Below, piece by piece: positions 40,115 to 63,852 of a DNA stretch of 64,000 bases. The number at the start of each line of letters is the position of its first letter. Position 1 is the first letter of the stretch. The notes beneath the pieces were generated by a model. That model saw only the letters and a list, made by a program, of their open reading frames with translations. It ran no database searches and was not told where the DNA came from. Source of the DNA: Saccostrea echinata (taxonomy: Eukaryota); contig NW_026889757.1 in the NCBI RefSeq assembly GCF_033153115.1, positions 11,656,001 to 11,720,000 of the forward strand, written 5' to 3'. Position numbers and translations under genes: made by a program.

Positions 40115-43100
40115 TCAGAAATTGTGTCCCCTCTGGATAAGCATCTCTCCATAAGGCTCCCTCTGGTCAACATATACATTCCCTTTGGCACATAAATCTA
40201 GGGTAAAAAAAATTATTACTTACAGATAAAACAGCATTGCTTATGATCATTTTATGTACAAGTAAAATATATACAGGTATGTCCATAACCAGGCCTTCTT
40301 TTTTTCCATAGTATGATCTTTGAGAACACATATTCATGTAACTCTAGAATATTATATAATACACAGGATTATCTACACTAGATTAATGCAGTAAATTGTA
40401 AAAACTGTTTATATCCACTGTATGACATATTTTATACTAGGACACATTCATCCCATTGATTTATTTTACGTATGTACTGGGAATTGTTCATGAAATGAGT
40501 TCATTTTTTATTTGCTAGTGAATTGCCCATTCTGTTTTGCTACTTGGTTAACTATTTTCGATTTGGTTCAGTTCCAATTATCCTTAATTACTTGCATGAT
40601 CATACTACTGGAGAACATGAAAAAAATTATATGGAGGCAAGTTATTTTGTATTGATTGATAAAATCTGCCCGAAATTTAATTATCAATTTGAAGTATGAC
40701 TGGCTACATATGAGAATTACTCTTTTGCTGAAGGTAATGGTCCCTAACAAACAGACTGACAGACAAGATAATAATTTCTCTTCATGCATACCTATTGACT
40801 TTCTTAGTAGCAAGTTTGATTAAGACTAATTTCAAGTCTCAGTGTACATCAGTTATATAAAGTAAGGGGAAAGCAATAGATTCTAGATTGAAACTAACGA
40901 AGCAAGGCGTTGAACATGGAGGCTGCTATTTTTCTGTCATAAAAGTGTGGCGGGCAAACTTCCTCAAATGTTGAGTAATCCTTCTCACTTGTGTTTGAGT
41001 TGATTAACCTATAATTGAAAAAAAAATATTTGACTCGATCAGTATGTCCAGATTAAAGAATGTCCATGCAAAATCAAGGCAATAAGAAAAAGCAATAAAA
41101 ACCAAACTCTTGTTTTAATAAAAAAAATTCTTTCTCAATACATTCTACAGTATTACCTGAGAAATCTACTTTCTACTTGTGAGAGCTTGGAGATAATTGG
41201 TAACGGTGTGTCCACCATAGGTATTTCTGACTCCTCCTGCACCACTGAGAGATTTCGACTGATCCTTGAGAATGTGTCAGACACAGAGTGCTCTGAGGGA
41301 GGGACCAGAAGCTCCTCCTCAATGGATCCCCGAGATCGGCTCCTCCTTTTTCGACTAGAAAATACATGTAATTCTTTATCTAGTTTAAACATTAAAAATC
41401 ACTTACAGGGGCAGAATATCATAAGAAAATTGTAAACAAAAACAGAATCAATTCATCAAGTAATGAATAAATCTTTAAAAACAAAAAAAAGAAGACAAAC
41501 AAGAGGCCCATGGGCCTTGAATCGCTCTTCTGATAAACTGTACAACCTATCACTTCTATTTGAAGCCTCGAAGTATCCTGTATATTTAGATAAACCCTTG
41601 AAATTCCAATTCACACTCTGAGAACCCAAGATGATTCTAAGCCAATTAGTACCTGAGAGTTGGTCATGGTGACCTACTTATCACTTGTCATTCTCTGAAG
41701 ACCCATCAACTAAGTTTGATGATTCTAAGCCAATTAATACCTAAAATATTTTTTAAAATTATAACCATAAAATTTTATAAGTAGGTCAAAGTGACCTACT
41801 TTTCAATTGTTTTACTCCAAGGACCCAAGATGCAAAAGTTTGATGATTCTAAGCCAATTAGTACCTGTAATATTTAATTAAAGCCATAAATTTTCAAAAG
41901 TAGGTCACCGTGACCTACTTTTCAGTTGCTGTACTCCGAGGACCAAAGATACATCGACTGACAAAGTTTGATGATTCTAGCCAATAAGTACCCAAAATAT
42001 TTAATTACAGCCATAAATTTTCAAAAGTAGGTCACGGTGACCTACTTTTCAGTCAACCTACTCCGAGGACCAAAGATGCATCAACTGACAAATTTTGACG
42101 ATTCTAAGCCAAATAATTCCTGAAAATATTAAATACAGCCATAAAATTTCAAAAGTAGGTCACCGTGACCTACTTTTCAGTTGTTGTACTCCGAGGACCC
42201 AAGATGCATCAACTGACAAAGTTTAATGATTCTAAGCCAATTAGTACCCGAAATATTTGACTAAAGCCATAAATTTTCATAAGTAGGTCACCGTGACCTA
42301 CTTTTCAGTTGTTGTACTCCCAGGACCCATGACGCTTAAACTGACAAAGTTTTATGATTCTAAGCCAATTAGTACCCAAAATATTTTATTAAAGCCATAA
42401 ATTTTCCGAAAGTATGTCACGGTGACCTACTTTTTAGTCGTCCTACTCCGAAGACCCATGAGGCATCAACTGACAAAGTTTGATGATTCTAAGCCAATTA
42501 GTACCCGAAATATAATTAAAGCCATAAATTTTCAAAAGTAGGTCACTGTGACCTACTTTTTAGTCGACCTACTCCGAAGACCCATGAGGCATCAACTGAC
42601 AAATTTTGATGATTCTAAGCCAATTAGTACCCGGAATATTTAATTAAAGCCATAAATTTTCAAAAGTAGGTCACGTGACCTACTTTTTAGTCAACCTACT
42701 CTGAAGACCCAAGAGGCATCAACTGACAAAGTTTGATGATTCTAAGCCAATTAGTACCCGAAATATTTAATTAATGCCATAAATTTTCAAAAGTAGGTCA
42801 CTGTGACCTACTTTTTAGTCGACCTACTCCGAAGACCCAAGATGCATCAACTGACAAAGTTTTATGATTCTAAGCCAATTAGTACCTGAAATATTTAATT
42901 ATAGTCATATAAATTGAAAAGTAGGTCACTGTGACCTACTTTTCAGTTGACCTTTTTTGAGGACCCAAGATGCATCAACTTACAAAGTTTTATGATCATA
43001 GGACTTAAAATGTCCAAATTATGCCTCTAAAGCGCTTTGAAATCGAATGCCTGCAAAGTTCAAAAAGTAGGTCACTGTGACCTACTTTTTAATAAATATG

Positions 43101-46100
43101 TTTTATGGCCCCAAGATGCATCATCTTACAAGATTTAATGATTCTAAGCCTCCCCGTATTCGAATTAATGACCTTAATTGTTTTAAAAAAGATTAGCCAT
43201 AAAATTCAAAAAGTAGGTCAAGGTGACCTACTTTTTAGTTGACGTACTTTGAGGACCCAAGATGCATCAACTGACAAAGTTTGATGATCATAGGCCTTAA
43301 ATTGTTCAAAATATGCCTCTAAATCATTTTGAAAAAGAATGGCCGCAAAATTTAAAAAGTAGGTCACCGTGACCTACTTTTGAGTCAACATGATATGAGG
43401 TCCTTAGATGCATCAACTGACAAGATTTGATGGTCCTAGTCCTTATAGTAAGCAAAATATCAACATTTTAATAAAATGTAATTTTTGGTCAACTTTGAAG
43501 TGACCTTGAGACCACGCCCTTTGCCCCAGGGTAAATCCCCGCGCAAATTTTAATCTACAACATATCCTCATCCTTTTGTGTAAGTTTGGTGATAATCTGC
43601 CCAGTGGTTCTTGAGAAGAAGATTTTTTAGCAACCAGTACTTTTGTTTCTATTTTCCTAATTATCTCCCCTTGTTAAAGGGTCACAACCCCAGTTTTAGT
43701 ATAAAAGGGAGCCCTTGGGCCAAGGATACCCTGTGACAAATTTGACAATAATTGGCCAAGGGGTTCTTGAGTTATGGCCCATATTCTAAAAAGTTTACGC
43801 ACACCGCACAAATGGCCATAGCATTAGCTCTTTGAGCCTTTGGCTCAGAAGAGCTAAAAACACATTAATTCTTCTTGAAAATAAAGGTGTGCTGACAAAT
43901 GTAGATCATTATATGTAACACAGGAGCTTGGCTGTAAATAACAGTTCGTGGGACAATTTCAAGTTAAATTTATTCTCCTAAACCAAAATATTGGTACCTG
44001 GGGTACGTTTAATAACATATTATATACATTTTATACAAATTAGTCAGAGGTACCCTCCCCACTTTTTTTTTTAAATTTTGCCAACAATTACATGTAGCTT
44101 TAGAAAATTGACCTGGCAGTGGATCTATCAGACAGCGAGTCATCCTTACTCCTGGCAGACAGATGAAGCTGGATAGGGGTTGTGTCCTGGAGACTTTTTT
44201 CCATTGATATTGAGGCATCTCGGGGGATTTCCATAGATGGCATTTCATTCTATGAAATATGCATATTAACTGCTTATCAAGTGTTAAAGAAAAATATCTC
44301 TCCAAAATGTTTAGTTAGATACAATCTCTCATTACTCGCTCCTCTCCAACTATTTACACAGTTTGAGTATGATCAACTTGAAATGATAAATTTCCATTTT
44401 TATATTATATAAAACAAGTAAATTTTCAATTTCTATGAAACACTATATTTAAAAAATTACAAGACAATTCTGACTTTTCTCTTAAAATTCAAAACAATTT
44501 GTGTTCAAGATGCAGTCTGTCACTGTTGCTTAATTGATAACAAAACTTAATAGTTTCTCAGGCCAAAAATTTTAATTCAATGTGGCAGGCAGGTCCTTTG
44601 GAAGCAGGTGGTACACCTTTTTTTTTTTTTTTTTTTTTTTTTCATGTCAGTCATTCAACAAAATGATGATATCAACAGATTCTTACTTTTCTTGTTCTCT
44701 TACATTAATTATAATATGTATTCAACTTTGAATAATGTTATTCCAAACATTAAAAGTTAATTAATAAAATACTGTATTAACAAGAAATATATTGTTTATC
44801 TAATAAAACCTCTATCTATTAGTATTCATGAAAAGGGTAATAACTCGATTTTCTTTAATAGAAAATTGAGTTATTTCCTTTCTCAATATGTCAATAAAAT
44901 TGATCTATGTGGCTGTGCCTGAGAAACTACTGATTTTTGTATTTTTGCCTTATAGGGACATTTTTACTTACTCCCATACTAATATCTGCCCTGACTTTCT
45001 CTGGAGAAACTTTGTCTAGGGGGATTTCCAGTTGTGGGGGCTGTATTTCTGTCATCTGTATATCTGGAATCTCAGGCTGCACATCTCGTCTTTCCACTTC
45101 TGGTTCAGACAGGAGAGCTCGTCTAGATCTTTTACTACGTGTAGATTCATCTCCTAAACATAAGCCTTAAAATTTCCAGGATGGACACTATATTTGGGAT
45201 GGACTGACAGGCATGGACAACCTGCTCTCCCTCCCATCCCATTTCACTAGCAGCATGGGCAAGGGGCACAAAACTAATTTTGCTTAGTCTTGAAGTATTG
45301 TATTTTATTTATATACAATTAAGTTACAGACTACTATCATTTTAAATCAAATTCTTATTCAAGTTTTCCTTATACAGATTGTATCTAACTCAAACTCACT
45401 GAATATACTAGGCACAGTCCAGAAAGGAGTCTCAATATCAGACTCGGTCTCCAACACCCCTGGCCTGAGATTACATCGCCACAAGTCGATAAGGGGAGAC
45501 AATCTAAGGCACTTGCTACCTGGCTGATTGAAAAGAGTGGCACAGTCTGATCGCCCAATGACAGGGACACTCTGGGATAAGAAAAGGTATTTAAAAATAA
45601 GGTTAATTCAGCAATAGAAATATGATTTTCTTAAAACTCATTTATCTTTATAACTGTCCTAAAAGGGATGCTATGGATTACAATTAAATTAAAGAATCTT
45701 GTTAAAAATCACTTTTCCACAGCTATAACTTAAAGACTGCAAAATTTAACTCTTTATTTTTTCAGAATTACATGTACTATAAATTCAAAATACTCTGTAT
45801 CACTCCACATTACAGAAATTTAGTAAAATCAGAAGAGACTTAAAACTTACAAATGGTTTACACAGATCACTCCCTGTCTGGAGATTTTTCTTCATCTCAG
45901 TTTTGGGAATCATCATGTTCTCATCTACTATTAAGTGACGTCGTCTCCTTTTCACCGTCCTCGGACTTGGAGGCAAGGGGGCTAACTCTAGTGACATGTC
46001 AATCCGTCTCTGCATTAAATATAATTGCAGTGTTTTGCTTTTAATTATTGATGTTTTTGCTAAACAATTGTGAGAAAAATTTCTAACAATCTTTGCATTG

Positions 46101-49100
46101 TTGTTAGAGATTACTTCCATTCAAGGATATGATTCCAATGAATTGACCTTCCCCAGTACCTTTTCTACAATATCTCAACACAGTCTGCTCAAAAGTAATT
46201 ATGCAGGAAGCATGTACAGACCCTTTTTTTTTTCCCCAATTTTCCCTTTATTGACTGTAATTTATTATTCGACTAATAAACAAATAAATGATTAATTCAC
46301 ACAAAAGTTAGCACAAAAGTAAGGATCTACAAGAAAGAAAAACAATGATGTACTATATAACAGTTCTAAGTGAATTTCTAGTGATGAAACTATATGCCCC
46401 TCACCCCCACCCCCAAAATATATACAACACAGTGTAATAGCTACAAATTGTACTTTTCTTGAGCTCCGATAAGGTTCCTCCTCAGGTGGGGGCATTAGAG
46501 TGACCTCTGGCTGTGACCTTGGTCGAAGTTCACGAATAGCTGGAGGGGCTTCAGGGAGAAGCTCCTCAGCCTGTCCTCGGGGTGTCTTTTCTTTGGGTGA
46601 CATAATTTGTTCTTCAAGTTCTTTTGCCTCTTTGGTTGTCTTTTGAGGGGAAGAGAGACTGATTAATGCTTCTGATGCCTTTACAGAGCTACAAAATATT
46701 AAGCATTGATAACATGGATGAAGATTGTAGTGGCAAGTCCTAAATTACCACACAGGGAGTTTCTTTAGTGGGTGTAAGATTTGGCATTTTCCTTGCTCAC
46801 AGATATATAGTGATAATTTTGGCAGAACTTAATTTAGCCGACATGGAGTTGAATGACATTGCAGAGGGAGGAACTTTATCCCACAGACAAGTTTTCTTTA
46901 CGTTTTATGTGTCAGAATCATGATTTATGCAGTTGGAATTTATATTTAAGTAAAACCAAAAGGAAGATATGATGTATAACAATTAACACTGATCAAAGTT
47001 ATATTTCTTGTTCTCTGTACATATACACAAGGGTGCATATTTAGCAATAAATTTTTTTGTGTTTACATCCAAATTGCTAAAATAATTAAGCCAAAATTAT
47101 CACCCCACTAATCTAGATGTTGTTGACACGGTGACCAATCAAAGGGCTCCACTTTAGCAAAGGACATTAGGATGAAAGACCCTTTATCCAAGGGCATTCT
47201 TTGGGTGAAGTTTGAGCCAAAAACCTTAAGCTCAATGTCCATGAATAAACAAACTTTTCAAAGGTATACATGTACACTATAAAACAATTTTCAATATACA
47301 CATGTAATCATTGTGAAATTCATGCTCCTAAATTGGTTAAGGTGTGCTGCCTTTGTGTAACCAAAGGAGCATAAATTTCCCAATTCAATGGTTCATTTTA
47401 ATCATGCAAATAGTTTTCATATGACATATTTTCTCTCTGAGTTATTTCCCTTGGCCGCCATCTTGGTGGTCAACATGTTGATTTTTCCTCTTTGTCTTAC
47501 CAAATTTAAGAGGGTGTAGCAGAAAAATTTAGGGAAAAATCTTTATAAAACAAAAATTATGAAATAAAGAAGGCTTTTATAACAATTAAGTGTATATTTT
47601 TCATAAAAACAATGCTTCCTACCTCACAATGGCCAGTATAAAATGTAAAAGTTGGTTGAATAATATACTGAAGGAATATGAGCATGTTGACCTCTGATAT
47701 GGCAGTCAACGGGAAATAACTCTTGCTAATTCAGGCCTACTGAAATTCTGTCTATTAATATAAAAAAAAAGGAGTAAAGAAAATTTTTCCAAGATTTCAA
47801 AACAGGACCAACTTAGCCCCATAAATTTATATTAATTACTGTGGTCTATACTATGGACATGCACAAATTTCTTAATTTTGATAGAGGGCTAATCATGCAA
47901 ACAGCATGCCTGTTAGATACCAATGAGTAGAGAAGAAAAATTTTGTAACTGTATTTTGTAACTGTATTTTCCATATACAGCATGACCAAATTATCCTGAG
48001 CCTAGATAGGAATATATCTCATACCATCCTGACTTCTTAAGAGTACGGTACTTCACATGATAAACTGTCAATTACCTCTCCCCCAGAGGAATAGCAACAT
48101 CAGGTTGATGTGAAGTGTCAACAGGATGGAGAGTGTCCATTCTGGCTGACTCATTTAGCAGGGCTTGAATGTTCTGCTCATCAAGAGGAGGCAATTCTGT
48201 CTGCTCAGCAATCTGAAATAAAATTCATATAGTGTATCAACTTTCCTTTAAACAATTATTATAACAATGCTTTATTGTATATCATCAAAGCTTTTAAAAC
48301 AAATTTCATATTTGTTAATTTTTTCCCATGGTACATCAATTGCCCATACTGGAATAAATAAAGGGCTACCAAAACTGGAATGAAAATTTATGCCAAATTT
48401 TGATTCATAAATGTAATCCATTTATATAATTCTCCTCACTCAGTACCTCACCCTGTCCAATCTCTCCAACTCTGTCCAATGCACTTACCTTTGGAAGATT
48501 AGGTATATCAATCTCCTTCAGAGTAATTTGGTCCAGACTTGATACAGTGTGTGGAGAACCTAGAGCTATAAAGAACTATTTCTATTAGCTTTATTCTCTC
48601 TCCATGAATATTCATACATTTGTGATGGATATAAATTCCAACTGCAACAAAGTGCAACTTTGCATAGACCTATGAAATTTTTCCATATTTTTTTTTCTTT
48701 TCATACTTTGCAAGATGAAAATTAATTGTTCAAATATTTCTACGTAAACCCAGAATTTTGTCTGGGATATCCTTGCTATTTTATAGAAGACTTGTAATCT
48801 TTTTTTTTTAATTTAAATTCTCTATTCAGGGGTTGGTCCTCTCACCTGATTTTAGGAAGCTCTGTTCTGACTCAATTTGAATTGAGGAGGATGCTTCTGA
48901 ACCTCTGTGGCGCCGAAGGCGTTCCATGCTGGAGTCACTGCCAGGGGAAGATAACTCTGTCAACAATTTCTGCACATCTTCATAGTCCTGGGAAGATCCA
49001 TCAAAATAAACATCTAGACTATAACATCAGATTTCAAGAATTTCTACCTCAGTTGTTGAGCTTTACATGTACGACTTTTATGTACAAATAATATAGAAAT

Positions 49101-52100
49101 TGCTCAAGTTTTCTTTTATACTTTATTATAAAATAACAAATCATTTTGACTTGTTTATCATATGAAATAACTAAATGCTCAATGAAAAAAAGGAAATAAA
49201 TAAGCTTACCAATAAAATTGGTTGATGTTAAATTATAAGAAACTGAAATGAAACAAAACATAAATAGCTAACCAAAACCTCACAAGAAAAATAAATCTTT
49301 TAAAAATTAAATCAAAGAATACAAGAGGCCCAAGGACCTTAACAGTCATCTGAGTACAATATAACCCTTTAAAAGATCCTTGGAAAGGTATAATAGCACA
49401 AAATAAACTGAAAGAAAAGGCTGATCAGATCTCAACAAAATAGTTTTTCTGGTAACCAGCAACAACTCGGGAACATCATATATGCTAACTACATCCTCAT
49501 CAGATCATCACTGACACCAAATTTTACAATAGTGCTTTAGAATAAAACACAATGTTCTCAGAGTACCTAGTCAACAATAGCCTCTCTTGGTCTTTGAATT
49601 ATATTTATACAGATATTTTTGTCCCATTTTTATTCATTTATTAAATAAAAATCTACCTGACTATTAAAAATATGAAAGTACTTTTTATATCATACATTAT
49701 TCTAGTATAATTCTTTTATTCACTTACCTATCAATTACATTATTTACATAAATTATAATTATCTTTAAGCAAATAAAGAGGGGAATAACTTTTCTTAAAG
49801 TAGAAAAAATATTCCCATACATGATCATGATAGAGCCCCATCTTAAGTCCTGGACGCCTGTCTCAAGGGCCATGAAATTCACAATTTTGAAAAAAAAAAG
49901 GTGCTCTCTTTCATTATAACCAATTAACCATGCACAAAGTTTTCTTGCTAAATATTCAAGAGCAGAGGAGAAGATTTTCAAAGAATTAATGCATTTTCAC
50001 TATAGGATCAAAAGAGCCCATCCTAACTCCAGAACCCCTGACCCAGGGGCCATGAATTTCACTATTTGGAAGAGGCACTCTTAATCATCATATCTACACT
50101 TAGTTTGTCTGCTAAATACCCAGGAGCCATGCAACTCACACTGGAAGAGGCACCCTTGCTTATCAAAACTATACACTTAGTTTCTTTGCTTTATAACCAG
50201 GAGCAGAAAGAGGATTTTCAAAAATGCTTTTTCACTATATAATCAAGAGTCCCCCCCCTTCCCCAGAACCCCCAATTCCTGGGGCCATGAATTTTGCAAA
50301 GATTTTGGAAGAGGCATCCTTGTTAATCATAACCATGCACTTAGTTTATTTAAATAATACCCAGGAGCAGAAAAGAAGATTTTCAAATGATTAGTGCATT
50401 TTCACTATAAAATCAATAGAGCCTTGCCCTAACAACAGAACCCCTGACCCAGGGGCCATGAAATTCACAATTTTGGAGGAGGCACCCTTACTCATCATAA
50501 CTATGTTCCTTGTTAGTTTAATACCCAGGAGCAGAGAAGAGAATTTTCAAAGAATTAATGCATTTTTACTATCTAATCAATGAAGCCCCACCCTAACACC
50601 AGAACCCCTGGCCGAGGGACTATGAATTTCATAATTCTGGAATAAGCACTTACGTTAATTATAACCATGCACTTAGTTTGTCAACTAAGTACTCAGAAGC
50701 AGAGAAGATTTTTCCAGGAATTAATGCAAATTCATTCTATATAATCAATAAAGCCCTGCCCTAACTTTAGAATCCCTGACCCCTGGGTTATGAATTTCGC
50801 AATTTTGGAAGCACTCTTGCTCATCATTACCATGCATTTAGTTTGTATTCTAAATACCAAGTAGCAGAGAAGATTTTCAAAGATTTATATGCATTTTCAC
50901 TATAGGATCAAATTACAACCATGTCCTAATACCAGAAGTCCCAACTCACTGGCCATGAATTTCACAATTTGGAAGAGGCACTCTTGCTCATCATATCTAT
51001 GCACTTGGTCTGCTAAGTATTCAGGGGGAGAGTAGAAAAATTTTGAAGAATTTATGCATTTCACCATATCATCAATAGAGCCCCACTTTAACACCAGAAT
51101 CCCTGACCCTGAGGGCATGTATTTCACATTTTTGGTTACTACAATCAGCTCAAAATTGGACTGCTTGATGTCCAGGAGTAGAGAAGAAGATTTTCAAAAA
51201 TTGCATTAATTTTGATTGTTTTAGTCCTTCCGCTCAGGCACCAAGGGTTGGATTGGGAGGGATGGGCTTGGTGCAGGGACCAAGAAATTCACAATTTTTG
51301 TTCCCCGTTACCCATAGATGCTATATGACAAAATTGGTTGAAACTGGTTCAGCAGTTCCAGGGAAGAAGCTAAAAATGTTGAAATATTAACACATGACGA
51401 CAGTCGAAAACAGATAGCAACAAGTAGTGACTCAGGTGTCAAACCTAAAAATGCAAATCTGCACATAACCAAAGTAGAAGCTTCATCATAACACTATGCA
51501 CAAAAGATAAACAAATTTAAGAATTTTATTGATCTTTAAACCCATGTTTCTTTAATATGAAACACATATCAAAAGTCCTTGTGTTTTCATGCAGTATCTT
51601 CCCTAAAAACAGGCCAAACTGACTGCTTCAATTGATAAAAATGCCACGACAAAATCAAAAAAAAAAAAAAAAATTGTTATAGGGTCAACAGAAATGTTAT
51701 ACATTAACATGAACCTAATAGCCTGTTACAATTGATCTCCAACCATTTACTTTGAAATAAAGACAAAACACTGTGCATGGACATAAACATTCAATACCTC
51801 ATGATAATCTGTAATTTTGCCAAAGTATGGGTCGTAGAAGGGTTGTTTTTCTGTTGTCAATTCTACAATGTCTTGCATTGTTACATGATCTGGTCTAAAA
51901 TACATGAATATGGTAGATTACTAATTTTAATACATTGTACTTTAAAAAATTAAAAAATCAAGTAGTGTCATAAAAATGTGAATGCCATACATATCCCTTC
52001 TTGAATGGATTAACTTTTAATTTTTTTTTTTTTTTTGAAAAAGTAAAATAATTCTACTTGTTATTAGTTCAAGGAAATTTATTTAACCATTTACCTGCAT

Positions 52101-54560
52101 GCAATATTAAGATCAATATTTTCTGCAATATTTGCAGCTAGTCTCACTTTCACCAAGAAAGATGTGATATCCTCTGTAAATACAAAAGGAATGACACTAA
52201 TTATTGTAATAGAATGTATAGAATCATTTAAAAAGAAAGTAATTAATCATAGCCATGCCTATGACAATCAAAATTGTAGAAACTTAATTGGTTTATAGTT
52301 TCAATCCATCTCAATACCCTTTTATTAATTCTCAGAAATGACAAGATATCTTCAAAGGTCGATCTGTACTATCATAATTCATAATCATGATTATACGATT
52401 ATTCTGTGGAGATCTACATATAGTTACAAAAATTGTCCCTGAAGAAATTTAGACAGTCAATTAGGATGTACAGCTTCACTGCTTCATAAATTTTAAGCCT
52501 GAATGTACAGGCATAGAGAATTTGCTTAACCATGCATGCACATGCATGTGCACAAATTTATTTTCTGTCATCTGAGCTCATACTTAATAAAAGAAAATTT
52601 GAGTTGGTTTTAGTACCTACCTAGTAAATACTGAGTTTGCTTTTTGTACAGTCGCACACATCCAAACATCAGCTTGGCTGAGAGGTACAGGGAGAATCTG
52701 GGTCGGCTTCTCCCTCGCACCGAGGGTTGCTTCCTCACCATGATGTAATCTAAAATGTCTTCACTGAAAGCATGCAGATGGAAATAAAAAGAACAAAATT
52801 GCTTAAAAGTAGGATTTTAGTTTGTTTTTTTTTTTCAAATAAACAAGGTTTTAACAACTTTTCATTTTAAATTTTCCTCTCCTTAATACAAATTTCAAAA
52901 AAACTTTACCACTAAAGTAAAATTGACCCAAAACTCTTCAATTCAGAGAAATATCTCTTTTCAGTAATTCAACCTGAAAGCAATGTTTGTTGAAAATTTG
53001 CAAAGTCAGTAATCAAATTTAATCAGCTTGAAGTCTACTCATGTGACAAATATCAAAAAGGAGCCAAAACTGTAAGAGCATTTTGAGAGAATTCTTTAGA
53101 AATTTCTACAAATTAATAGTGAGCTAGCAATTTGTCCATGTTATATTTACCTTGGTGTGTAGTACATTTCTTTACCAAAATTAAATAATGGACCAAAACT
53201 GTATGATGAGAGCAGAGAAGCATTCTTGAAAGAATTTCACAGATATTTCTATTTTTACTAACAAAAGGTTCACGTCAGTGTAATATTTAGAGTAAATTAC
53301 TTGTGTTTATAGATATACATTCATTTTTCTCTTTTTTCTTTTTCTTTTTTTTTTTAAATTTTTATCTAATAGAATTGTATTGCTTATAAACCCATATGTT
53401 ATAATATGTGTAATATGCAATAAAGATTATCATTTATAATATTACCATGTTTTACATAGGTTCACTCTAGTAACATCTCTTCTCTTCAACACATGTTCAT
53501 CTTTAATTGTAGCTGCCAACCTGTAGTAAAATAATTAAAGCATTTTGATTTATAATAATATTGTATATATTATTCAGATATGTCAGTGGCCCATTCCCCC
53601 TTAAAAGTTGCCTATAATTAGCCCTCTGTGCATGATTTGATTTTCTCTTAATATCAGTGACCACCAACTCCCGAGAAGTAGGTGAAATTAACATCAAGAT
53701 TTGGGCCCAAAAATGTCTAAAACGTGAATTCCTTAGACATTGTACTAAAAGTTTGTAACACAATGTAGTGCAGTTGTCCAATATCGTGATGTTTTCAAGG
53801 ATATTATTAAAAGGAAAGCTGATGTTAGCATCAGAACCTGTAGCTTTATGTTGGACCTAGCTGCAGACCTGTAGCTCTCTGCCTGAGAAAATTCGGACAG
53901 ATAAACCAGTGAGCTACAGATCCAAGTGTTGTAAAAACCTTGATTCATGCTGCCACTTTTTTGTCGCTCACTTCGGGTATTATTTCTAGGGATATTTGGA
54001 ACCGCTGACAGGTAAATAAAGTATTACCTGGTAAGACGGGGAGTAAAATATATGATTAATTATTGGATACCATATGTGAATTAGGGGAATGCATAAGATA
54101 CAAGAAATAATACCCTAAGTGAGTGACAAAAAAAGGTGGCGTAAATCCAAGGTTTTTACAATGCTTTGATCTGTTGCTCTCTGGTTTATCTGTCCGAATT
54201 TTCTCAACCAGTCTGAGAGCTACAGTTCTGCAGCTATGTTGGACCCAACAGAAAGTAGCATTCTTGAATCAATTTTTCCATATTGCCAATCCACAGTTAA
54301 TTTCAAGCTTTATACAACACAAAAAAAACACAATGCATTAAGCACCCATCAATTGCTCAGTATCTCGAGACATTCTGACAACAAAAAACTCACTGGTTCC
54401 TATAGCTCCTACATGTAGAAATCTAGAAGTATATTCTATTCTGTTGAAAAGAACATCATATTCTTTGGAAAATTATAATGATAACTTTTTCAAAATAATT
54501 TTACCAGACTGTCCCAAAAACACCCCCTCTTCTATTCAAAATGCTCTGATGATAAAACAT
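40115..54560 (-). CDS. REC8: Meiotic recombination protein REC8 (meiotic cohesin kleisin), 16 exons, ~693 aa
   Basis: Exons 54560-54505, 53520-53446, 52763-52621, 52173-52095, 51894-51798, 48987-48846, 48565-48489, 48212-48076, 46688-46454, 46009-45851, 45571-45400, 45153-44972, 44249-44113, 41354-41157, 41008-40899 and 40197-40115; all GT-AG and in phase. The N-terminus MFYHQSILNRRGGVFGTVWLAAT...VNLCKTCEDILDYIMVRKQP...RPRFSLYLSAKLMFGCVRLY is REC8-type rather than RAD21-type. It also has KRRRRHLIVDE and the C-terminal winged helix RKIAASMFNALLHLC...VDQREPYGEMLIQRG. Confidence 0.95.
41499..43860. mobile_element. Helentron-like element (HINE) with a 128/146-bp tandem array whose unit contains the palindrome AAAAGTAGGTCACnGTGACCTACTTTT; in REC8 intron 13
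   Basis: Begins ACAAGAGGCCCATGGGCC and ends TTAGCTCTTTGAGCCTTTGGCTCAGAAGAGCTAAAAA; ~14 units between ~41650 and 43440. Confidence 0.85.
49321..51450. mobile_element. Older copy of the 5998-8240 HINE family (~168 bp array) in REC8 intron 5
   Basis: Same start (ACAAGAGGCCCAAGGACCTTAACAGTCATCTGAG), same unit (CCAGAACCCCTGACCCAGGGGCCATGAA) and a degraded terminal palindrome. Confidence 0.8.
53858..54236. mobile_element. Long-TIR MITE with 9-bp TSD (TAG termini, Academ/AcademH-like) in REC8 intron 1
   Basis: TGTTGGACC|TAGCTGCAGACCTGTAGCTCTC...GAGAGCTACAGTTCTGCAGCTA|TGTTGGACC; ~130 bp imperfect inverted arms. Confidence 0.75.
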
Positions 54561-57947: not shown

Positions 57948-59513
57948 CGTTGTCTGTCCGTCCATCCGTCCGTCCATCCGTCTGTAAACTTTTCACATTT
58001 TCAACTTCTTCTCAAGAACCACTAGGCCAATTTTAACCAAACTTGGTACAAAGTATCCTTGGGTGAAGGGGAGAGTAAATTATTAAAATAAAGGGCCAAG
58101 TCCCCTTACAAGGGGAGATAATCAAGAAAAGACAAAATAGGGTGGGGTCATTAAAAAATCTTCTTCTCAAGAACCACTGGGCCAGAAAAGCTGAAACTTA
58201 TGTGGAAGCATCCTGGGATAGTGTAAATTCTAAATTGTTCAAATCATGACCCCCGGGGGTAAGGCGGGGCCACAATAGGGAATCCAAGTTTTACATTGAA
58301 ATACATAAGAAAAATCTTTAAAAATCTTCTTCTCAAGAACCACTGGGCCAGAAAAGCTGAAACTTATTTGGAAGCATCCTTGGGTAGTGTAGATTATAAA
58401 TTGTTCAAATCATAACCCCCGGGGGTAGAGCGGGGCCACAATAGGGAGTCCAAGTTTTACATTGAAATATATAAAAAAAATCTTTAAAAATCTTCTTCTC
58501 AAGAACCACTGGGCCAGAAAAGCTGAAACTTATATGGAAGCATCCTGGGGTAGTGTAGAATCTAAATTGTTCAAATCATGACCCCCGTGGGTAGGGCGGG
58601 GCCACAATAGGGAATCCAAGTTATACATTGAAATATATAGGAAAAATTTTTTAAAATCTTCTTCTCAAGAACAACTGGGCCAGAAAAGCTGAAACTTACA
58701 TGGAAGCATCCTGGGGTAGTGTAGAATCAAAATTGTTCAAATCATGACCCCCGTGGGTAGGGCGGGGCCACAATAGGGAATACAAGTTTTACATTGAAAT
58801 ATATAGGAAAAATCTTAAAAAATCTTCTTCTCAAGAACCACTTGGCCAGAAATACTGAAACTTATATGGAAGCATCCTGGGGTAGTGTAGATTATAAATT
58901 GTTCAAATCATGAAACCCGGGGGTAGGGGCGGGGGGGGGGGGGGGGCACAATAGGGAATCCAAGTTTTACATTGAAATATATAGAAAAAAATCTTAAAAT
59001 ATCTTCTTTTCAAGAACCACTGGGCCAGAAAAGCTGAAACTTATATGGAAGCAATCTTGGGTAGTGTAGAATCTAAATTGTTCAAATCATGACCCCCGGA
59101 GTAGGGCGGGGCCACAGTAGGGAATCCAAGTTTTACATTGAAATACATGAGAAAAATCTTTAAAAATCTTCTTCTCAAGAACCACTGGGCCAGAAAAGCT
59201 GAAACTTATATGGAAGCATCCATTGTTCAAATCATGACCCCCCGGGTGTAGGGCGGGACACAATAGGGAATCCAAGTTTTACATTGAAATATATAAGAAA
59301 ACTCTTAAAAAATCTTCTTTTCAAGAACCACTGGACCAATAAAGCTGAAACTTATTTGGAAGCATCCTGAGGTAGTGTTGATTCTAAATTGTTCAAAGCA
59401 TGACCCCCGGAGGTAGGGCGGGGCCACAATAGGTATATTAAAAGGGGGGAAATCTGGTAAAGAACAGCATGGCCAAAGCTACTCAGGTGAGATGTGGCCC
59501 ATGGGCCTCTTGT
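57899..59513. mobile_element. HINE/Helentron-like element with a 166-bp satellite array (Cg170-like)
   Basis: Starts with the TTTTTAGCTCACCTGAGCTGAAAGCTCAAGTGAGCT palindrome and a (GTCC)n microsatellite. Units AAAATCTTCTTCTCAAGAAC at 58155, 58321, 58487, 58653 and 58819 give a period of 166. Ends GGCCCATGGGCCTCTTGTT. Orientation is opposite to the 5998 and 41499 elements. Confidence 0.85.
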
Positions 59514-60575: not shown

Positions 60576-61755
60576 GCGCCCTCTTTCAAGGGGAGATAAT
60601 AAAGAATTACTGAAAAATTAATAGCATCTTTTAAAAATCTTCTTCTCAAGAACCACAGGGCCAGGAAAGATGAAACTCATGTGGAAGCATCCTCAGTGAG
60701 TGTAGATTCAAGTTTGTCCAAATCATGACCCCCGGGGGGAGGGCGGGGCCACAATGGAGGATCAAAGTTTTACATAGAAATATATAGGAAAAATCTTTAA
60801 AAATCTTCTTCTCAAGAACAGCAAAGCCATGATGAGTCATATATATATATGGAAGCATCTTCAGATAGTGTAAATTCAAGTTTGTTCAAATCATTACCCC
60901 CGGGGGTAGGGCTGGGCCACAATGGAGGATCAAAGTTCTACATAGAAATATGTAGGAAAAACCTTTAAAAATCTTCTTCTCAAGAACAGAAAAGCCATGA
61001 TGAGTCATATTTATATGGAAGCATCCTCAGGTAGTGTCAATTCAAGTTTATTCAAATCATGACCCCTGGGGGCAGGGTGGGGCCACAATGGAGGATCGAA
61101 GTTTTACATAGAAAATATATAGGAAAAACCTTTAAAAATCTTTTTCTCAAGAACAGCAAAGCCATGATAAGTCATATTTATATGGAAGCATCCTCAGGCA
61201 GTGTAGATTCTATTTTGTTCAAATCATGACCCCCGGGGGTAGGGTGGGGTCACAATGGAAGATCAAAGGTTTACATAGAAATATATAGGAAAAATCTTTA
61301 AAAATCTTCTTCTCAAGAACAGCAAAGCCATGATGAGTCATATTTATATGGAAGCATCCTCAGGTAGTGTAGATTCAAGTTTGTTCAAATCATGACCCCC
61401 GGAGGTAGGGCAGGGCCACAATGGAGGATCAAATTTTACATAGAAATAAATAGGAAAAATCATAAGAACATATAGAAAAAATATTTCTTCTCAAGAACAG
61501 AAAAGCTATGTTTAGTCATATTGATATGGAAGCATCCTCAGGTAGTGTAGATTCAAGTTTTTTCAAATCATGACCCCTGGGATAGGGAGGAGCCACAATG
61601 GGGGATCAAATTTTTACAAAGGAATATATGGGAAAATTTTTATTAATATCTTCTCAAGTACAACAAAGCCATTTGTTATATTGACAAGCCCCCCCCCTCC
61701 CCCCCGGTAATCTTTCCAATACTGAACTGATTTGTGCTTTTGCCAAGCCAATGTG

Positions 61756-63141: not shown

Positions 63142-63330
63142 AACAAGATGTGTATATGAAACACTGATGCCCCCGTATGGCAACTTATAGCGAAAGTTAA
63201 ACTTTCTCAAATGCAAATCAAATATGATGGTACTGTACCCAAAGTGTACTTGTACCGAGGAATATACCTGTGTAATATGAAAGCCCTAGCAGCAACCATT
63301 GAAAAGATATGGAAAAGGTAAAAGTTTTTC

Positions 63331-63361
<31 letters not shown>

Positions 63362-63476
63362 AAGGGTCAAAGTTGTTGTTATCCAAAGAAAGGTCTTGTC
63401 ACAAGGATTACACATGTGAAGTATGAAAGCCCTAGCACCAACCGTTCAATAGTTATAGCCAATGTTAAAGTTTTTC

Positions 63477-63507
<31 letters not shown>

Positions 63508-63852
63508 AAGGGTCAAAGTTGTTGATATCCAAAGGAAGGCCTTGTCACGAGGATTACACATGTGAAGAATGAAAGCCCTAGCACCAACCGTTCAAAAGTT
63601 ATGGCCAAGGTTAAAATTGGGAAAAATTTTGTAAAACTGGATCAAACTCCAAGGTCAAGGTCAAATATGATGGTTCCCAAATAAAGGTCTTGTCACAAGG
63701 AATATACCTGTGAAATATGAAAGCCATAGCTTCAACCAATCAAAAGTTATGAGCAATGTTAAAGTTTTTGCGGACAAACAGACAGACAGACAGATGGACT
63801 GACAGGGCAAAAACTATATACCCCCGAATCTTCGATATGGGGGCATAACAAA
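63142..63852. mobile_element. HINE-like element with ~146-156 bp units rich in CAAGGTCAAGGTCA
   Basis: Starts ACAAGATGTG..TGATGCCCCC; three to four units; (GACA)n microsatellite; ends with the hairpin CCCCCGAATCTTCGATATGGGGGCATAA. Confidence 0.7.

Follow-up and report, generated by a model that had tools for sequence, protein, structure and literature searches.

Elements of the HINE/DINE-1 type have subterminal inverted repeats (subTIRs), a 3' palindrome, T-rich insertion sites and, optionally, tandem repeats, all of which recur in the element described here, family A; their autonomous partners encode Rep, helicase and endonuclease (PMC4067079; here and below, comparisons draw on parts of the papers cited). 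In Crassostrea gigas, the group 1 elements Cg_HINE_1/2/4/10_13 have in common a 5' subTIR, an inverted repeat and a microsatellite, and their ends are of the Repbase Helitron-N2 type (PMC7492417). The HSE-Helitrons of Caenorhabditis are rolling-circle elements that supply most genome copies of one transcription factor site; the copies form dense clusters, whose originally suggested role was to benefit the Helitron itself (PMC6927752). Family A resembles them in this respect; however, binding and gene induction were shown for the Caenorhabditis elements, whereas the nuclear-receptor palindrome of family A is known from sequence alone. As for the receptors, a gastropod ER is constitutively active and recognises the consensus ERE, a snail ERR apparently did not bind it (data not shown), and the same report remarked how little was known of EREs in mollusc genomes (PMC3778743). 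Our literature search, which covered few subscription papers, returned no paper joining nuclear-receptor sites or EREs with Helitrons or mollusc transposable elements.

The window, that is, the whole stretch of 64,000 nucleotides that was analysed, contains an array of receptor-type palindromes which is the core of a young non-autonomous Helentron (HINE), family A, of 2.36 kb. The host gene and the element are laid out as follows.

40115..54560, minus strand: REC8-like alpha-kleisin gene, 16 coding exons, about 690 aa (open exon model, Pfam and spliced contigs)
44113..44249, minus strand: REC8-like exon 13 (exon model and spliced contigs)
41157..41354, minus strand: REC8-like exon 14 (exon model and spliced contigs)
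41499..43860, minus strand: HINE family A, 2.36 kb, oriented as the host gene (sharp ends common to copies)
43827..43860, minus strand: 5' end, with a T run, the subTIR GCTCTTCTGA and a partial inverted repeat (sequence; layout like Cg_HINE_1/2/4/10_13)
43460..43826, minus strand: non-repeated module, with a block common to the window's Cg170-like 166-bp HINE repeats (sequence)
41499..41534, minus strand: 3' end, subTIR and then the palindrome AGGCCCATGGGCCT (sequence; Table S2 of PMC7492417)

As seen, several hallmarks of a HINE are present: GCTCTTCTGA at both ends, a AGCTCTTTGAGC inverted repeat by the 5' one, and the 3' palindrome at 41504-41517. The 5' end is followed, near 43797-43810, by a short degenerate GTGC-type microsatellite (GTGCGGTGTGCGT). 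The target is T-rich, a T (A on the window strand) adjoining the element end in 61 of 73 full copies, and there is no evident target-site duplication, since flank repeats of at least 5 bp occur in 7 of the 73 copies against 6.5 for shuffled flank pairs. The element is non-coding, its longest minus-strand open stretches being below 80 aa, and 17 other full-length copies are 95-98% identical to the one in the REC8 intron. The shared sharp ends, subTIRs, 3' palindrome and dispersed copies support the initial annotation's assignment of the array to a Helentron-type mobile element. Within the non-repeated module, TCAAGGTCA at 43501-43509 is what we take to be an ERR/SF-1-type site.

Family A and Cg_HINE group 1 share a satellite-like central array of fixed orientation, a 3' subTIR followed by the GGCCCATGGGCC palindrome, a T-rich target without target-site duplication, and insertion in genes, whereas the central repeat is different, as is the subTIR (GCTCTTCTGA in family A, GCTCACCTGA in group 1) (PMC7492417). 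AAAAGTAGGTCA, TGACCTACTTTT and GTGACCTAC had no matches among the CL1-13 array-table sequences listed in that paper, each compared over at most 400 characters, and identity with CL6 was rejected because the sequence differs, although CL6 is AGGTCA-rich. Receptor motifs are not discussed in the sections describing Cg_HINE that were drawn on here (PMC7492417).

The insertion lies in intron 13 of the REC8-like gene, as had been proposed, according to the 16-exon model and to spliced contigs that cross the element. Exons 13 and 14 are joined over it in four of four runs matched to the 3' exons, and also in three of four runs on upstream exons, the fourth being without a REC8 contig; among the joints listed, none connected the element to a REC8 exon, as exonisation would. 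Pfam matches to Rad21_Rec8_N and Rad21_Rec8 were obtained in 2 of the 10 exon pieces scanned, and a PDB search using REC8 exon 3 gave no match. The RAD21-like paralogue is a separate, higher-scoring kleisin on C14; the labels REC8 and RAD21, assigned by elimination and from motifs, are probable.

The repeats themselves, with no strand assigned, are as follows.

41640..43460: ordered central array of 14 units (degenerate first, then 128-bp, then 146-bp), each with a 27-bp palindrome (sequence)
41783..43375: IR3/ERE cores, 11 perfect, and 2 more broken in the REC8 copy (substitution at 42414, deletion at 42668)
32163..32328: old remnant of the family A repeat, about 165 bp or about 1.3 units, with one perfect ERE at 32191

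A motif scan recovered all 11 perfect AGGTCA-N3-TGACCT cores that had been reported, within 1.6 kb, as well as the one at 32191. When one mismatch was allowed, 14 matches were found against 0.11 expected, a number reached by 0 of 100 shuffles. The sites at 41661 and 42414 are indeed near-perfect, with one mismatch each, but that at 42668 is a 1-nt spacer deletion. Likewise, the 32191 site, described earlier as an isolated copy of the unit, does hold a perfect ERE but is only a remnant, about 77% identical to the element and matching neither element end in sequence comparison. The array has a period of 128 bp at 41835-42996 and of 146 bp at 42917-43460, and its palindrome consists of two 12-bp AAAAGTAGGTCA arms flanking a C-N-G spacer. 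The core matches the consensus IR3/ERE GGTCAnnnTGACC (consensus from PMC3778743). Each arm is also a perfect predicted ROR/Rev-erb site, and the RORE consensus DDMWBTRGGTCA (PMC7310410) is matched by 274 left and 271 right arms of 323 units; compared with the two consensus sequences, then, a family A unit is two inverted ROREs at ERE spacing, with a CpG in the spacer. ER-type and ROR-type DNA-binding exons are both present in the genome, at C9:52908433 and C17:5133041 respectively, and an ERR-type one is at C9:37082197. The expected binding by ER/ERR-class receptors agrees with the gastropod ER and apparently not with the snail ERR, and the constitutive gastropod ER upholds the description of mollusc ER as a ligand-independent ERE binder (PMC3778743).

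Genome-wide, the family A element end has 874 exact matches, approximately 1 per Mb, and of the 12,790 perfect EREs, 9,608 belong to its extended palindrome. Perfect EREs were found in 56 of 60 end-selected loci, both ends in 46 of the 60, and a random 200 kb gave no perfect ERE, with AGGTCA ranking 31 of 4,096 hexamers (163 vs 111 expected). The proposal that a mobile family is spreading multimerised perfect IR3 sites is thus borne out by these copies. If most perfect EREs are transposon-borne and lineage-specific, motif scans for "estrogen-responsive" genes would mostly detect family A, and ER CUT&Tag must take in repeats.

Next, we considered which positions of the palindrome are conserved. 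Across the majority element's 13 units, variable columns amount to 0 of 12 in the half-sites, 2 of 12 in the outer arms and 69 of 101 elsewhere; where 19.9 changes would be expected in the arms, 2 are seen (Poisson p=5e-7), both inside the RORE consensus, and the constraint ends at the arm boundaries. The half-site conservation claimed by the initial annotation is therefore strong among units, but the outer arms are equally conserved (p=0.56; separate test, p=0.48), so that the footprint per arm is 12 bp, not 6. Functional EREs should have half-sites conserved above flanks and spacer, a pattern that was not seen, and because the outer arms match the half-sites, the result is largely the uniform conservation that had been named beforehand as pointing to a hairpin or transposition role only. 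Nor did the spacer prove free to vary: its third base is G in all 11 perfect sites of the window and its first is C in 9 of the 11, its variation is mainly CpG deamination (228 of 269 spacers), and AAG and AGG remain tied to unit position. CpG columns mutate about 9 times faster, which implies germ-line methylation and not open chromatin, a point against the receptor-docking reading given below.

Overall, the first reading of this locus is partly supported. Our own, held tentatively and at a little less than even confidence, is that the array is the core of a HINE in a REC8-like intron whose palindromes may dock a host nuclear receptor that aids copying of the element. A sequence-reading protein would bind, as an ER dimer on the IR3 core and/or as ROR/HR3- or Rev-erb/E75-type monomers on each arm. 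Receptor-bound copies could then be easier to reach for a Helentron transposase provided in trans; alternatively, bound copies nested upstream of a transposase gene could boost its transcription. Copies with intact sites would therefore be the sole founders of new bursts.

A structural signal, the main rival, is possible, if rather unlikely: the 12-bp stem would fold into a hairpin or cruciform while the rolling-circle intermediate is single-stranded, serving in priming, pausing or array-building template switching, and the ERE match would have arisen incidentally when an older AAAAGTAGGTCA word was duplicated in inverted orientation, leaving a minimal 3-nt loop. Equal constraint on both full arms, ending where they end, is consistent with such a signal, as are the predicted DNA hairpins (-8.5 to -13.8 kcal/mol) and the additional 1-5 stem pairs of some units, where the next position is G-C or A-T; a 3-nt loop would also predict a free spacer. 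Nevertheless, compensated arm pairs are essentially absent (1 in 3,876 cells, 0 among the 13 majority units), which indicates that the sequence itself is kept, beyond mere pairing. The related family C, a 146-bp repeat and distant kin of family A (motif-removed similarity z=2.3-3.4, 0-2 of 300 shuffles), carries just one RORE-type arm, placed in the same register, and lacks a hairpin, and yet it spreads well, with 3,111 exact anchor matches. On the other hand, we rejected RORE-specific conservation in the single-arm families, since conservation of the 12-mer does not exceed that of the remaining unit in family B (0.89 vs 0.89, rank 50 of 80 windows, 113 units) or family C (0.945 vs 0.935, p=0.11, 77 units), a result in line with a structural cause tied to the palindrome. 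It was through the motif that families B, C and D were first discovered, so its presence in them is partly circular. Homology of family A to family B or to the Cg170-like repeats was not significant.

Once copies have landed, the arms, those of the REC8 copy included, change as fast as the background. In 17 young copies, private non-CpG substitutions affect 17 of 2652 half-site positions and 153 of 22151 in the rest of the array (p=0.90), and rare variants among 323 flank-anchored units from 52 loci have frequencies of 0.0080 in half-sites vs 0.0078 (p=0.92); purifying selection on half-sites at inserted loci was thus not found in the young copies or, at the strictest rarity, in the 323 units. 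At looser cut-offs the half-sites appear somewhat protected (p=0.01 for up to 6 copies, p=0.045 for up to 10), which we read as probably due to inherited variants leaking in; weak selection on half-sites after insertion may also contribute. Arms kept among the units of the lineage and decaying at background rate after landing indicate that it was the transposing lineage, rather than host enhancers, that was under constraint, and sites that stay intact during multiplication likely serve the element itself.

Neutral maintenance, in which arm-to-arm template-switch repair or short inter-unit conversion would erase mutations without any function, is improbable. The palindrome-lengthening change in one unit and the lack of selection on landed copies are compatible with it. 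However, arm-to-arm repair predicts that about half of fixations be symmetric and none were, conversion would homogenise the spacer while AAG and AGG stay tied to position, and one-sided changes accrue in landed copies at the background rate.

We consider it equally doubtful that the Helentron Rep/helicase itself recognises the arms, whose likeness to receptor sites would then be accidental. The element-level constraint would suit such sites, and the genome contains intact Helentron ORFs (OTU-Rep-helicase-endonuclease), which reach about 2,900 aa, with roughly 150 or more Helentron transposase loci in all. Against this, zf-C4 was absent from the Pfam hits of the three transposase ORF pieces scanned, and Cg170-like HINEs, whose ends are similar, lack an arm of this kind in both units checked. 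In favour of receptor docking, family A copies lie just upstream of intact transposase ORFs, in sense orientation, in three of nine autonomous loci. Other HINE families also cluster there, so the nesting may reflect targeting of T-rich introns alone. An autonomous parent with family A ends around its ORF was found at none of the nine loci (a count that omits two single stretches, L298 and L305), and a matching 3' end downstream of the ORF was absent from all six loci of the clade hosting nested copies.

That the array is a co-opted, multimerised ER/ERR enhancer regulating REC8 and tying gametogenesis or sex phase to ER is very improbable, in spite of 11 perfect consensus EREs in 1.6 kb, an ER-type gene, a mollusc ER that binds EREs without ligand (PMC3778743) and Helitron-borne sites that rewire genes in Caenorhabditis (PMC6927752), because the genome contains at least 874 copies, the start codon lies 11-13 kb upstream of this one, and it is young, differing by 1.3% from the majority sequence, and has lost 2 of 13 sites where drift predicts 1.2-1.9, its 11 perfect sites comparing with a mean of 12.0 in the 17 young copies. 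With about one exact end per Mb, a single insertion in a meiotic gene is no evidence for the gametogenesis link, which we do not uphold; the REC8 insertion is most likely a passenger, and the array is probably not a hormone switch for REC8.

Returning to receptor docking, constraint in transposition followed by decay after landing provides an example, open to testing, in which selection would have favoured a rolling-circle element for carrying a host-factor site, comparable to the nematode heat-shock Helitrons. More broadly, and judging from sequence, oyster-type Helentrons might have hijacked host nuclear receptors, using ER/ROR sites for germ-line mobilisation and to drive the transposase genes they nest in, reshaping where the ligand-independent mollusc ER binds and occasionally giving genes like REC8 receptor input; this wider proposal is speculative and, as a whole, unlikely. 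Finally, among the transposase loci, the C9/C56 twin is 99.7% identical over 4,385 bp and may be either a composite that transposed or a duplicate, segmental or due to assembly.

A pattern search of the window for the estrogen-response element (ERE; the inverted repeat AGGTCA-N3-TGACCT), allowing up to one mismatch, returned 14 matches against 0.11 expected. The initial annotation's 11 perfect sites, its isolated copy and two of its three near-perfect sites were recovered. The main features are as follows.

41783-43375, 11 perfect EREs (pattern search)
32191, isolated perfect ERE (pattern search)
41661 and 42414, near-perfect EREs (pattern search, one mismatch permitted)
54560 to 40115, minus strand, REC8-like gene, 16-exon open model of ~690 aa (gene model)

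The array consists of tandem 128-bp units followed by 146-bp units, with one ERE per unit; the ERE at 42668 lacks one spacer base. Every array ERE forms the center of a 27-bp palindrome, in which two 12-bp AAAAGTAGGTCA arms, each a half-site plus an outer arm, flank a C-N-G spacer.

Pfam Rad21_Rec8_N and Rad21_Rec8 were matched by 2 of the 10 host-gene exon pieces scanned. The REC8-like name rests on motifs and on elimination, since a second, higher-scoring kleisin lies on another contig (C14). Public transcript contigs splice at the junctions predicted by the model and join exon 13 straight to exon 14 in two sets of runs (4/4 and 3/4), so that the element is removed with intron 13, the location originally proposed for the array. 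The intronic position of this copy is silent. In transcripts, the exon 7 acceptor lies at 48565 (48559 in the gene model), and a 6-nt insertion at window position 45016 distinguishes exon 12 in run X3 (organism B).

The stretch from 41499 to 43860 is a young nonautonomous Helentron (HINE), here called family A. Among the 40 candidates that were scored out of 3,261, 17 further full-length matches were 95 to 98% identical and shared its sharp ends. The 5' end has a T run, a subterminal inverted repeat and a partial inverted repeat, and the 3' end a subterminal inverted repeat and the palindrome AGGCCCATGGGCCT, matching the end features of Pacific oyster HINEs in the parts of PMC7492417 consulted, including Table S2, and of Helentrons in general in those of PMC4067079. 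Flanks were T rich in 73 full copies, among which target duplication was not above chance (7 versus 6.5). The exact 5' end occurs 874 times genome-wide; together with the ends and the near-identical copies, this bears out the proposal of a mobile, ERE-carrying Helentron-type element. In 60 loci chosen by 5' end among the first 100 listed, 56 contained perfect EREs and 46 both ends. The extended palindrome GTAGGTCA-N3-TGACCTAC occurs 9,608 times (control, 0) and perfect EREs 12,790 times (control, 40). From the extended-palindrome count, rather than from site-by-site mapping, 75% of the genome's perfect EREs may be taken as the family A share. Diagnostic words of the repeat found no match in the portions compared of the C. 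gigas CL1-13 table (PMC7492417), and no account of bivalve Helentrons carrying receptor sites turned up in the literature searched. The element ends, together with the Cg170-like repeats, suggest that the source organism is an oyster. The array is a striking, real sequence feature in a known element class, with a cargo undescribed as far as that literature goes.

Constraint on the arms acted in the copying lineage. Across the majority element's 13 units, 0/12 half-site, 2/12 outer-arm and 69/101 other columns were variable; the arms carried 2 changes versus 19.9 expected from non-CpG sites, and their placement ranked best for paucity of changes among all same-shape windows. In 323 units from 52 loci, anchored on flanking motifs, mean identity was 0.985 in half-sites, 0.969 in outer arms and 0.862 elsewhere. 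The half-sites are thus conserved above the rest of the unit, as had been claimed, but not above the outer arms beside them (P = 0.56). Similarly, the spacer does vary, but 228 of 269 spacers were CCG, CGG or single deamination products of these, and 31 were AAG or AGG, fixed by unit position. CpG columns changed about nine times faster than others, implying germ-line methylation.

We tentatively favor the reading that the arms or the core are bound by a nuclear receptor of the host and that the bound element would be favored for mobilization; in functional terms, the nearest parallel comes from the HSE-cluster Helitrons in Caenorhabditis, as portrayed in part of PMC6927752. The core is a consensus ERE, and in the parts of PMC3778743 consulted, snail ER binds this consensus without ligand as a constitutive activator, and snail ERR apparently does not bind it. 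The conserved footprint, however, spans 12 bp on either side of the spacer, and each arm fits the ROR monomer consensus DDMWBTRGGTCA (from part of PMC7310410), which occurs 100,977 times in the genome (control, 23,922); exact copies of the arm number 38,490 (control, 391). Forty receptor exons fetched included ER-type and ROR-type exons, with best solved matches to AncSR1/ER and ROR-gamma, and a third that matched PPAR and NR1D1. Two pairs of near-identical receptor first-finger exons, with members on different contigs (L191/L195 and L192/L193), are either paralogues or residual haplotype duplication. Counting against receptor binding, single arms in two other repeat families (B and C) were not conserved above their own units.

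A structural role is a serious rival because the palindrome forms a stable hairpin in silico (-8.5 to -13.8 kcal/mol); however, compensated pairs were virtually absent (1/3,876), which counts for a receptor, and a hairpin signal appears unlikely. Maintenance of the palindrome by neutral repair and its use as a transposase site are both improbable, to the same degree.

The genome holds many long intact Helentron open reading frames that encode OTU, Rep, PIF1 and endonuclease domains. At 3/9 loci examined, belonging to transposase lineages only ~44% identical in protein, an older family A copy (84 to 90% identical) lies in sense at most 3.5 kb ahead of the ATG, one stopping ~70 bp short of it. 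Such nesting would arise by chance with a probability of 7e-5 if copies were uniformly dense, or 0.007 if that density were multiplied by five. A pyrimidine tract and AG precede the ATG in these three loci and most others, so the upstream region is probably a 5' intron. Upstream of the gene, 10 sense and 0 antisense HINE 3' ends of this kind lie in the six loci of the clade with the nested copies, and 0 in the three loci of another clade. Since other HINE families nest there too, target preference alone may account for the nesting. In the six-locus clade, the apparent 5' intron of intact transposase genes has collected nonautonomous HINEs from several families, all in sense (G000:C9:52.67 Mb, L289; C20:8.01 Mb, L291; C64:4.47 Mb, L294; also on C10, C54 and C25). 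One composite has a 99.7% identical twin on another contig.

Once a copy has landed, its palindromes decay neutrally. Across 17 young copies, after removal of one duplicate locus, private non-CpG substitutions amounted to 0.64% at half-sites against 0.69% over the remaining array (P = 0.90); for variants in at most 3 of 323 units, the values were 0.80% versus 0.78% (P = 0.92). At rarity thresholds of 6 and 10, half-sites appear somewhat protected (P = 0.01 and 0.045), probably because inherited variants enter the count. Young copies average 12.0 perfect EREs; the REC8 copy, 1.3% from the majority, keeps 11/13, with a drift-predicted loss of 1.2 to 1.9. The suggested link of REC8 and sex phase to ER is unsupported, and an enhancer of REC8 is highly improbable.

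The single arm is present in three other repeat families. Family C has the 146-bp period and register of family A and, with the motif removed, weak homology to it (z, 2.3 to 3.4), suggesting an old single arm from whose inverted duplication the palindrome arose. A fragment upstream of the C25 transposase fuses sequence of both families. More family C and 160-bp repeats with ROR/Rev-erb consensus words lie at G000:C1:1626400-1628100 (L237), C1:1472700-1474500 (L236) and C1:177900 (L239). Family B, a 146-bp repeat at 63258-63769 and 30433-30564, has a single AAAAGTAGGTCA arm, after which come AGGTCA repeats in direct orientation; its anchor has 3,895 exact genome matches, and its best-conserved window is AGGTCAAGGTCA, a ranking that alignment gaps may inflate. 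Cg170-like and 164- to 168-bp HINE arrays occur at 58154-59433, 60630-61672, 6809-7931 and 50142-51135, one of them in REC8 intron 5. By eye, 33145-33770 is a retrotransposon-like, integrase-like coding fragment and 35370-35740 a minus-strand SINE-like stretch that has a tRNA-like end; 35812-37419 is MITE-like, with direct and inverted 21-bp repeats.
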